Assembly: GCF_056712565.1 (NCBI RefSeq)
Contig: NZ_CM160072.1
DNA: 64,000 nt
Reading direction: 5' to 3' (one strand)
Shown: in pieces, positions 10,343 to 13,706 of the stretch
Layout of the letters: every line of letters starts with the position of its first letter
Position numbering within the stretch: the first letter of the stretch is position 1
The notes under the pieces: model-generated
Seen by the model: only the letters and a program-made list of their open reading frames with translations
Databases searched by the model: none
What the model was told of the DNA's origin: nothing
Position numbers and translations under genes: made by a program

Positions 10343-11158
10343 TTACCAGCCTTTAACAGCGCCGCCGTTAAACACTTTGTTTGCTGCTTCGTAAACTTCG
10401 TCAGACTGATAAGCCTGAACGAATTTCTTCACGTTTTCGGCGTCTTTGTTGTCTTCACGCGTTACGATCAGGTTTACGTACGGGGACTCTTTATCTTCGA
10501 CAAAGATACCGTCTTTCGCTGGAGTCAGGCCAATCTGGCTGGCATAGGTGGTATTGATAACTGCCAGAGCGATTTGCGCGTCGTCCAGAGAGCGCGGCAG
10601 CTGCGGTGCTTCCAGTTCAACAATTTTCAGATTTTTTGGGTTCTCAACAACATCAAGAACGGTCGGCAGCAGGCCAACGCCATCTTTCAGTTTGATCAAG
10701 CCCACTTTTTGCAGCAGCAGCAGTGAACGACCAAGGTTAGTTGGGTCGTTTGGCACGGCAACCTGCGAACCATCCTGCAGTTCATCCAGTGATTTGATTT
10801 TCTTGGAGTAACCAGCAATCGGATAAACAAATGTGTTGCCTACTGCGACCAGTTTGTAGCCACGATCTTTCAGTTGCTGATCAAGGTACGGTTTATGCTG
10901 GAAGGCGTTGGCGTCGATATCGCCTTTGCTCAATGCTTCGTTTGGCAGAACATAGTCGTTGAAGGTTACCAGCTCAACGTCCAGGCCATATTTGTCTTTC
11001 GCAACTTTCTGCGCGACTTCTGCAACCTGCTGTTCGGCACCAACAATCACGCCGACTTTAATGTGGTTTGGATCTTTTTCATCCTGACCGCAGCCTACCA
11101 GTGCCAGTGATCCAATCAGGGCTCCCACTGCCGCAAAGGTTTTGAATTTGAACGCCAT
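10343..11158 (-). CDS. metQ: D-methionine ABC transporter substrate-binding lipoprotein
   Basis: 271-aa ORF with lipoprotein signal (LALVGCGQ); NlpA-family binding protein downstream of metI. Confidence 0.9.
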   Translation of the reverse strand: MAFKFKTFAAVGALIGSLALVGCGQDEKDPNHIKVGVIVGAEQQVAEVAQKVAKDKYGLDVELVTFNDYVLPNEALSKGDIDANAFQHKPYLDQQLKDRGYKLVAVGNTFVYPIAGYSKKIKSLDELQDGSQVAVPNDPTNLGRSLLLLQKVGLIKLKDGVGLLPTVLDVVENPKNLKIVELEAPQLPRSLDDAQIALAVINTTYASQIGLTPAKDGIFVEDKESPYVNLIVTREDNKDAENVKKFVQAYQSDEVYEAANKVFNGGAVKGW

Positions 11159-11197: not shown

Positions 11198-11851
11198 TTA
11201 CTTGCGAGTGACAGCCCGGACGATGCGGTCGCCTGCGAACTGAATTAAATAAACCAGAATGACCAGCAATACCAGTACCGTATTCATCACCGTCGCGTTG
11301 TAGCCGATGTAGCCATACTGATAGCCAATCTGACCTAAACCACCGGCACCGACTGCACCACCCATCGCGGAATAACCAACCAGGGTAATCAGGGTGATAG
11401 TTGCCGCATTCACCAGACCCGGCAACGCTTCCGGTAACAGCACTTTACGGACGATCTGCATTGGCGTGGCCCCCATTGCGCGGGAAGCTTCAATTAACCC
11501 GGTTGGGATCTCCAGCAGAGCGTTCTCGACCATACGGGCAATAAACGGTGCTGCACCAACGGTTAACGGAACAATCGCTGCCTGCAATCCAATCGATGTA
11601 CCGACAATAACGCGGGTAAACGGAATCATCCATACCAGCAAGATAATGAACGGGATGGAACGGAAAATGTTCACAATCGCAGAAATGGTACGATACAACT
11701 TCGCGTTAGCAATAATTTGCCCCGGACGCGTGACATAAAGCAGAACGCCAACCGGCAGACCAATCACAAAGCCAAAAAAACCGGATACGAAGGTCATTGC
11801 CAGTGTTTCCCATACGCCACGAACCAGCAGCCATATCATCGGCTCAGACAT
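11198..11851 (-). CDS. metI: D-methionine ABC transporter permease
   Basis: 217-aa polytopic membrane protein; operon position between metN and metQ. Confidence 0.9.
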
Positions 11852-12875
11852 AACCCAGTACCTCTACTTTTACATGGTGTTCCTGAAGCCAGGCAATGGC
11901 GGCTTGCGTATCTTGTTGTGTGCCGTGCATTTCAGTCAGCATAATGCCGAACTTAACGCCACCGGCGTAATCCATCTGCGCGCTAATAATGTTGTTGTTG
12001 ACGTTGAAACGACGCGCGGTTTCAGAAAGCAGTGGGGCATCGACCGATTGACCGGTAAACTCCAGACGCAGCATCGGCACGCAGTCAGTAAATGGCTCCG
12101 CTTGCAGACGTTCCTGGTAATCTTCCGGGATATCCAGATGCAGGGTCGACTGAATAAACTTCTGCGCCAGCGGCGTTTTCGGATGCGAGAACACTTCACT
12201 TACCGTGTCCTGCTCGATCAGTTCGCCATTGCTGATGACCGCCACGCAATCACAAATGCGCTTCACAACGTCCATTTCGTGAGTGATCAACAGAATCGTC
12301 AAACCCAGACGGCGGTTGATGTCTTTCAGCAGTTCGAGAATAGAACGTGTCGTTGCCGGGTCCAGCGCGCTGGTGGCTTCATCACACAGCAATACTTTGG
12401 GATTGCTGGCTAATGCACGGGCAATCGCCACACGTTGTTTCTGCCCACCGGAAAGATTCGACGGGTAGCTATCATGCTTATCGCCAAGACCAACCAATGA
12501 CAGCAATTCCGTCACGCGACGTTTGATCTCGTCTTTCGGTGTGTTGTCCAGCTCCAGCGGCAGAGCCACGTTGCCAAAAACAGTACGCGAAGAGAGCAGG
12601 TTAAAATGCTGGAAAATCATACCAATCTGGCGACGAGCTTTGGTCAACTCGGATTCTGACAGCGTGGTCAGTTCCTGGCCATCGACCAGCACGCTACCCT
12701 CGGTTGGGCGCTCCAGCAGGTTTACACAACGTATAAGCGTACTCTTACCCGCGCCTGAGGCACCGATAACGCCATAAATTTGTCCAGCTGGCACATGCAG
12801 GCTGACGTTGTTCAACGCCTGGATGGTGCGGGTGCCCTGGTGGAACACTTTGGTGATATTCGAAAGTTTTATCAT
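11844..12875 (-). CDS. metN: D-methionine ABC transporter ATP-binding protein
   Basis: 343-aa ORF with Walker A (GASGAGKST), ABC signature (LSGGQKQR) and Walker B motifs. Confidence 0.9.
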
Positions 12876-12957
12876 TGATTATTTATTATCGTCATTAAGT
12901 TAGTCGTGGCATTTCGAATGCCTGGAACGGGCAACGCCGTCAATGAAATGGATGTTA

Positions 12958-12981
12958 AGGCATCCAGACGTCTAAATCAAT
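12958..12981. promoter_or_regulatory. Candidate MetJ operator (met boxes) upstream of metN
   Basis: Perfect AGACGTCT octamer at 12966-12973 flanked by degenerate octamers, ~90 bp upstream of the metN start on the opposite strand. Confidence 0.4.
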
Positions 12982-13062
12982 CAGGTTTATGCGAAGAGCA
13001 CTTTCTTGCAGGTCGAAACATGCGATACTAGCGTCACATGCCTTATTAAGGAGCTATAAAAG

Positions 13063-13635
13063 GTGGCGAAGAGCGTACCCGCAATTTTTCTTGACCGTGA
13101 TGGCACCATTAATGTCGATCACGGTTATGTCCATGAGATCGACAACTTTGAATTTATCGACGGTGTTATTGACGCCATGCGCGAGCTAAAAAAAATGGGC
13201 TTTGCGCTGGTGGTAGTAACCAACCAGTCTGGCATTGCTCGCGGTAAATTTACTGAAGCACAGTTTGAAACGCTGACCGAGTGGATGGACTGGTCGCTGG
13301 CGGACCGCGATGTCGATCTGGATGGTATCTATTATTGCCCGCATCATCCGCAGGGTAGTGTTGAAGAGTTTCGCCAGGTCTGCGACTGCCGCAAACCACA
13401 TCCGGGGATGTTTTTGTCAGCACGCGATTATTTGCATATTGATATGGCCGCTTCTTATATGGTGGGCGATAAATTAGAAGATATGCAGGCAGCGGCTGCG
13501 GCGAGCGTGGGAACAAAAGTGCTGGTGCGTACGGGTAAACCTATTACGCCTGAAGCAGAAAACGCGGCGGATTGGGTGTTAAATAGCCTGGCAGACCTTC
13601 CGCAAGCGATAAAAAAGCAGCAAAAACCGGCGTAA
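13063..13635 (+). CDS. gmhB: D-glycero-beta-D-manno-heptose-1,7-bisphosphate 7-phosphatase
   Basis: 190-aa HAD-family ORF with the DRDGT motif (FLDRDGTIN). Confidence 0.9.
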
Positions 13636-13678
13636 TGATTAAAAGATGAGCGGTTGAAATAAAAATGCATTTTTCCGC

Positions 13679-13706
13679 TTGTCTTCCTGAAACGACTCCC
13701 TATAAT
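13679..13706 (+). promoter_or_regulatory. rRNA operon promoter P1
   Basis: TTGTCT -35 (13679-13684) and TATAAT -10 (13701-13706) at 16-bp spacing, with an AT-rich UP-like region upstream; resembles rrn P1 promoters. Confidence 0.6.

Follow-up and report, generated by a model that had tools for sequence, protein, structure and literature searches.

Within a 64,000-nucleotide stretch of E. coli chromosome, which we refer to as the window, we identify positions 12950-12973 as the MetJ operator of the metNIQ (metD) uptake operon, composed of three tandem 8-bp met boxes that lie on the operon promoter, metNp. We put the probability of this reading at about 0.96, and nothing that we saw contradicts it. 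MetJ is a ribbon-helix-helix dimer with SAM as its corepressor; one dimer binds each met box, adjacent dimers touch, and a minimum of two boxes is required. The MetJ operator of metNIQ (metD, abc-yaeE-yaeC) was reportedly first described in 2002, by Gal et al. and by Merlin et al. It is an already known site and a piece of ordinary, expected biology, as a first-pass annotation of this DNA had rated it; the operator is documented in K-12. The transcription start site (TSS), the operator assignment and the 20-fold repression discussed below come from the literature, and the array, its statistical excess, its conservation and its distribution among lineages come from our analysis. Through this site the uptake of methionine is tied to the MetJ regulon and its sensing of SAM, a textbook part of E. 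coli physiology, and the site has little significance beyond annotation; what we add is the exact placement in the window of each of the three boxes, of the promoter hexamers and of the TSS.

The DNA around the operator is E. coli chromosome; metQ, metI and metN are encoded on the minus strand, gmhB is encoded on the plus strand, and rrnH lies past gmhB. The first-pass annotation had named metN and gmhB as divergent flanking genes, which agrees with the open reading frames, their translation and the RefSeq annotation of an identical stretch. The genes are:

11844-12875, minus strand: metN, ATPase of the methionine ABC importer and first gene of the operon (open reading frame, translation, RefSeq annotation of an identical stretch)
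11198-11851, minus strand: metI, permease, with an 8-nt overlap with the metN stop (open reading frame, RefSeq annotation of an identical stretch)
10343-11158, minus strand: metQ, substrate-binding lipoprotein and last gene of the operon (open reading frame, RefSeq annotation of an identical stretch)
13063-13635, plus strand: gmhB, with a GTG start (open reading frame, RefSeq annotation of an identical stretch)
past gmhB: 16S gene of the rRNA operon (RefSeq annotation of an identical stretch)

The divergent genes metN and gmhB are separated by an intergenic region of 187 bp (12876-13062). This whole region had been given as the regulatory site; the operator is indeed inside it, but the operator proper is only 24 bp, 12950-12973. 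Over 12400-13700, several complete E. coli genomes match the window at 100% identity, ATCC 11775 and ExPEC strains among them, and the segment is found in 5424 of 5426 complete E. coli genomes. Of the 5428 places that match this metN-gmhB segment, three are on plasmid-labelled records, and some genomes have two copies; the copies on plasmid records may reflect errors of assembly or labelling, or chromosomal DNA that plasmids have captured. RefSeq annotates no feature under the 51-bp promoter/operator match described below.

Read on the metN strand from 12973 to 12950, the operator consists of three met boxes in strict 8-bp register. Positions are given relative to the metN TSS, and scores are those of a symmetrised 8-bp position weight matrix (PWM) built from 26 published E. 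coli K-12 boxes, with metN excluded (Augustus & Spicer 2011, BMC Genomics 12:558, PMC3228920, Table S1):

12966-12973, minus strand: met box 1, AGACGTCT, perfect consensus and palindromic, -29 to -22, 11.7 bits
12958-12965, minus strand: met box 2, GGATGCCT, 5/8 matches to consensus, -21 to -14, 4.06 bits
12950-12957, minus strand: met box 3, TAACATCC, 4/8 matches to consensus, -13 to -6, 4.06 bits, including the -10 hexamer

Box 1 is the perfect octamer that had been noticed upstream of metN. Searching both strands, we found AGACGTCT as a single exact copy in the 64-kb window. Alone, it is within chance: 0.34 copies are expected per window, at least one copy was present in 31 of 100 shuffles, and its single-box score was matched in 402 of 1000 dinucleotide shuffles of the window. 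The three boxes together reach 19.8 bits, a total that makes them the top array of the window (the second best has 12.1 bits), so that the scan with a MetJ matrix, proposed earlier as a check, returns this site. That three-box score was attained anywhere in 64 kb by 5 of 1000 dinucleotide shuffles, and the two-box score by 69 of 1000. Significance is carried by the array, not by the lone octamer. As a general caution, a lone perfect met box is not significant; register, promoter context and the phylogenetic footprint are the evidence.

The array is bounded on both sides. Of the adjoining in-register octamers, 12974-12981 towards gmhB scores -5.35 bits and 12942-12949, past box 3, scores -11.9 bits; because both neighbours score negative, we rejected a fourth met box on either side and count exactly three boxes, all running from the perfect box towards metN. 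The flanking degenerate repeats claimed in the first-pass annotation are therefore real as two weak in-register boxes, but they are present on the metN side only. Box 1 is outside both promoter hexamers; a substitution of AGACGTCT to ATACTTCT, for example, falls outside the -10 element.

The promoter and the start of the transcript are laid out as follows:

12975-12980, minus strand: putative -35 hexamer of metNp, TTGATT, 4/6 matches to TTGACA, -36 to -31, in a position that fits the TSS
12952-12957, minus strand: putative -10 hexamer of metNp, TAACAT, 4/6 matches to TATAAT, -13 to -8, assigned from the spacing and the TSS
12944, minus strand: metNIQ TSS, an A (Kim et al. 2012, PMC3415461)
12876-12943, minus strand: metN 5' untranslated leader, 69 nt including the TSS base

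The TSS is experimental. Using 5'-triphosphate-enriched 5'RACE-seq, which captures primary transcripts genome-wide, Kim et al. 2012 (PLoS Genet 8:e1002867, PMC3415461) mapped the metN TSS of MG1655 to 222714 on the minus strand, with 83 reads and a 69-nt 5'UTR. The published 51-mer that ends at this TSS, TCGCATAAACCTGATTGATTTAGACGTCTGGATGCCTTAACATCCATTTCA, is identical to window positions 12994-12944. In K. pneumoniae, transcription of metN begins at the equivalent base; the UTR there is 71 nt and the core sequence is shared (Kim et al. 2012, PMC3415461). On this basis metNp reads TTGATT, a 17-bp spacer and TAACAT, with the TSS, the A at 12944, 7 nt beyond, and it has the features of a sigma-70 promoter, with hexamers separated by a distance in the range of 16-18 bp and a mapped primary 5' end 5-9 nt past the -10 element. 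Given that the published TSS maps to 12944, the met boxes span -29 to -6 and take in the whole 17-bp spacer and the -10 hexamer, and box 3 and the -10 element overlap on shared bases. The hexamers of metNp match consensus at only 8 of 12 positions, which is below the 9/12 threshold of the consensus promoter scan, and for this reason metNp is missing from that scan. Two other candidates with 9/12 consensus matches, a plus-strand TCGAAA/TATTAT pair (12860-12889) and a minus-strand ATGCCA/GATAAT pair (12912-12885), were set aside as inconsistent with the experimental TSS.

The site in the window is the published K-12 operator. In Table S1, the entry for MG1655 b0199 (metN) has three boxes, agacgtctggatgccttaacatcc, with a score of 20.45 bits and a 74-nt gap to the translation start (Augustus & Spicer 2011, PMC3228920). 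Window positions 12973-12950 equal this 24-mer letter for letter, and exactly 74 nt, 12949-12876, separate it from the metN ATG, so the comparison with the known metN operator that had been proposed yields the same operator at the same distance. The annotation had also pointed to an operator mapping elsewhere in the orthologous region as the result that would speak against it; we looked at this, and because the published K-12 operator coincides with 12973-12950, the operator maps to 12950-12973. In the same table, the accepted K-12 MetJ operators range from metK with 14.97 bits to metJ/metB with 31.2 bits (PMC3228920), and the metN array, with 19.8 bits by our matrix and 20.45 bits as published, is within that range.

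MetJ repression of metNIQ, which had been suggested from the sequence, is thus upheld by the exact match to the published operator and by reporter data: with 400 bp of upstream DNA, Ec.metN-lacZ gave a repression ratio of 0.05 between wild type and a metJ deletion, that is, 20-fold repression (PMC3228920). In the same study, metNIQ is one of the known E. coli operators in the training set, and gel shifts with MetJ and AdoMet were done on the tested operators as a set (Augustus & Spicer 2011, PMC3228920). A review summarising Merlin et al. states that methionine and MetJ regulate the metD genes. MetJ has been reported from five orders, and metJ is carried by 122 of 122 non-symbiont Enterobacterales examined (PMC3228920); the metJ gene itself maps outside the window, but since the window is E. 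coli, MetJ is expected to be present in its host.

For comparison across species, we took 80 loci from one protein-anchored MetN scan of 100,044 species genomes and scored 300 nt upstream of each metN with a PWM that excludes K-12 metN. The presence or absence of MetJ was assigned by lineage from PMC3228920. The groups are:

Enterobacterales (Escherichia albertii to Yersinia, Photorhabdus and Arsenophonus), 21 loci: three-box array in 21/21, 17.0-22.5 bits, 55-103 nt from the ATG
Vibrionaceae (11), Aeromonas, Pasteurellaceae (2), Orbaceae, Psychromonas and one unclassified gammaproteobacterial MAG, 17 loci: arrays in all
Bacteroidota, Halomonadaceae and relatives, Negativicutes and other Bacillota, and one alphaproteobacterium, 43 loci: best three-box score at most 5.2 bits

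Outside Enterobacterales, arrays are thus present in 16 of 16 loci of other MetJ-bearing groups and in the unclassified gammaproteobacterial MAG, with best two-box scores of 12.9-22.3 bits and three-box scores of up to 26.2 bits across these 17 loci. No met-box array was found upstream of metN in any of the 43 loci (43/43) from lineages not reported to carry MetJ. We also observed that MetN of several Bacteroidota (Pedobacter, Flavobacterium and others) is 62-73% identical to E. coli MetN, compared with 55-59% for the gammaproteobacterial Halomonadaceae, a pattern that suggests that metN may have moved horizontally between Gammaproteobacteria and Bacteroidota. The Bacteroidota loci with 62-73% MetN identity have no met boxes in the 300 nt scored upstream.

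In an alignment of 22 sequences, those of the window and of the regions upstream of metN in the 21 Enterobacterales, we observed a near-invariant block, rTTGAyTTAGmCGTCTrGAyrCCyTAACATCC. Mean column identity is 94% over 12950-12980 and 56% elsewhere in the intergenic region. Within the block, box 1 varies only at position 3 (A/C), box 2 is GGATGCCT, AGACGCCT or AGACACCT, all of them met-box-like, and box 3 is TAACATCC in 21 of the 22 sequences. The promoter elements are conserved too: TTG and the two trailing T of the -35 hexamer are invariant in the 22 sequences despite their position outside the met boxes, and the -10 hexamer TAACAT is invariant in all but one. This pattern, with the -35 TTG invariant outside the boxes and box 3 conserved beyond met-box degeneracy, fits a dual constraint from promoter and operator, and the invariance of the weak boxes 2 and 3 may be owed as much to spacer and -10 function as to MetJ. 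Among 5426 complete E. coli genomes, 5207 contain the 51-bp promoter/operator segment at at least 99% identity, compared with only 1500 records for the surrounding 1.3 kb at 99% identity. The PWM scan and the cross-species footprint independently agree with the published operator assignment. Taken together, the site displays the register, the score range, the position on a methionine-transport promoter, and the conservation, with absence in lineages not reported to carry MetJ, that define a MetJ operator. As a side observation, 20 of the 21 Enterobacterales contigs stop about 0.8-1.45 kb upstream of metN, within the 1.5 kb of flank requested; such contig ends would be expected if an rRNA operon past gmhB, as in the window, breaks draft assemblies, and they imply a conserved metN-gmhB-rrn synteny.

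From the layout of the array we propose the following mechanism. When methionine, and hence SAM, is plentiful, SAM-loaded MetJ dimers would occupy the array cooperatively, one per box, the dependence on SAM at this site being itself part of the proposal. The perfect box 1 would nucleate or anchor binding at the two weak boxes, giving three holorepressor dimers on 12950-12973. Since the array is at -29 to -6, bound repressor would cover the spacer and the -10 element of metNp and could in this way keep RNA polymerase off by occlusion. With RNA polymerase excluded, synthesis of the high-affinity transporter would be off under methionine sufficiency; a drop in SAM would cause MetJ to depart and metNIQ to be transcribed.

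The nearest relative of the operator is its K-12 counterpart. The 24-bp operator, the 74-nt distance to the ATG, the 51 bp to the TSS and the flanking genes are all the same as for K-12 metNIQ (b0199), and we see no difference in the operator/promoter although the window is from a non-K-12 E. coli. In common with the operators of metA, metBL/metJ, metC, metE/metR, metF, metK, mmuP and ybdH/mtnE, it is a series of 8-bp repeats resembling AGACGTCT, in tandem and in strict register. The other E. coli met operators, as catalogued, have two to four boxes and totals of 15-31 bits (PMC3228920, Table S1); according to a review, the metF operator has up to five met boxes. SAM-dependent cooperative binding of MetJ is expected for all E. 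coli met-box operators. What sets the metN operator apart from the other E. coli ones is a steep gradient over its three boxes, one perfect and two weak, the double use of box 3 as the -10 element, and the control of uptake rather than biosynthesis. In Vibrionaceae, Aeromonas and Pasteurellaceae, met-box arrays likewise lie upstream of the orthologous metN, but the box sequences and positions differ. Vibrionaceae and Aeromonas have a different and stronger architecture, for example (ATACGTTT)AGACGTCTAGACGTAAAAATATCT, with up to 26 bits at 74-171 nt from the ATG, while Pasteurellaceae and Orbaceae have two-box arrays merely 36-46 nt from the ATG.

Of the alternatives that we weighed, the one that survives best, and still a very unlikely one, is that the site is a shared operator through which MetJ also represses the divergent gmhB, in the manner of the metJ/metB and metE/metR arrays. 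The product of gmhB makes a heptose precursor of the LPS core, and we know of no link between gmhB and methionine, both of which count against sharing. The two genes are divergent and only 187 bp apart, and certain met operators are bidirectional according to a note to Table S1 (PMC3228920). However, box 1 ends at 12973 and the sole conserved promoter-like element that faces gmhB, TGcGATACT (13021-13029), begins 48 bp further on; with this separation the array would be upstream of about -55 of the putative gmhB promoter and not over it. Moreover, gmhB is absent from the K-12 genes with met boxes in the portion of Table S1 covered, and for exbB, which has its operator region in common with metC, MetJ binding in vitro is not accompanied by regulation in vivo (PMC3228920). 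By analogy with such cases, co-regulation of gmhB by this operator seems unlikely, and we retain the assignment of the site as an operator of metNIQ.

An alternative with next to no chance of being right is that the signal belongs to an RNA element, either a terminator-like hairpin, TGGATGCCTTAACATCCA, followed by a T-rich tail, or a SAM-sensing leader on the metN transcript. SAM riboswitches control methionine transporters in many other bacteria, and a consensus scan picks up a stem of 6 bp and a T-rich tail on the minus strand at 12966-12949. This hairpin, however, is upstream of the mapped TSS at 12944 and is therefore absent from metN mRNA; we rejected it as a terminator, its dyad being a by-product of met boxes 2 and 3 and their GGATG...CATCC symmetry. 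A scan of 12700-13250 against Rfam, on both strands and at E<=1, matched no family. The minimum free energy fold of the 69-nt metN leader is no more stable than those of shuffled sequences (z = 0.13). With RNAalifold we obtained no pairs for the leaders of 21 Enterobacterales and, for those of 12 Enterobacteriaceae, just a GGCA/UGCC stem of 4 bp, in which no compensatory changes occur. The metN leader does not qualify as a SAM riboswitch or other curated RNA leader, and an RNA element is excluded.

Equally negligible is the possibility that the octamer is a chance palindrome (with an AatII site) in the intergenic region, devoid of any regulatory role: a lone AGACGTCT, expected 0.34 times per window, does occur in 31-40% of shuffles, but chance is excluded because the in-register three-box array is matched in just 5 of 1000 shuffles of 64 kb, is placed on the mapped promoter of genes for methionine transport, is conserved at 94% against 56% in the flanks among the 22 Enterobacterales sequences, and is missing upstream of MetN where the lineage is not reported to carry MetJ, and because published reporter data show 20-fold MetJ-dependent repression (PMC3228920).

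Beside the MetJ operator, we note some further conserved features of the intergenic region. A second conserved block is located at 13016-13030, at -72 to -86 of metNp, and reads TAGTATCGCATGTTT on the metN strand; its mean identity in the 22 Enterobacterales sequences is 86%, compared with about 50% in its flanks. On the plus strand the block is CATGCGATACTA and contains the extended -10-like TGcGATACT (13021-13029) about 34 nt before the gmhB GTG, so it is probably the gmhB promoter. The TSS table of Kim et al. 2012 (PMC3415461) has no gmhB TSS, its metN entry being directly followed by dkgB. In the leader, a motif, GAAAATGCCACGGCTAAC, is conserved in Enterobacteriaceae at about 12899-12916, and two small hairpins can be drawn, ACGG..CCGU and GGCAUU-CGA-AAUGCC, without energetic or covariation support. 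We consider it unlikely that the 13016-13030 block, the leader motif GAAAATGCCACGGCTAAC followed by an A/U-rich ribosome-binding region without a Shine-Dalgarno sequence, or both, add a further, so far undescribed level of control to metNIQ, for instance by an activator or by post-transcriptional means; for the block, a role as the gmhB promoter is the plainer reading. The A/U-rich region in question is ACGAUAAUAAAUAA, which is conserved ahead of the metN ATG in place of a recognisable Shine-Dalgarno sequence.
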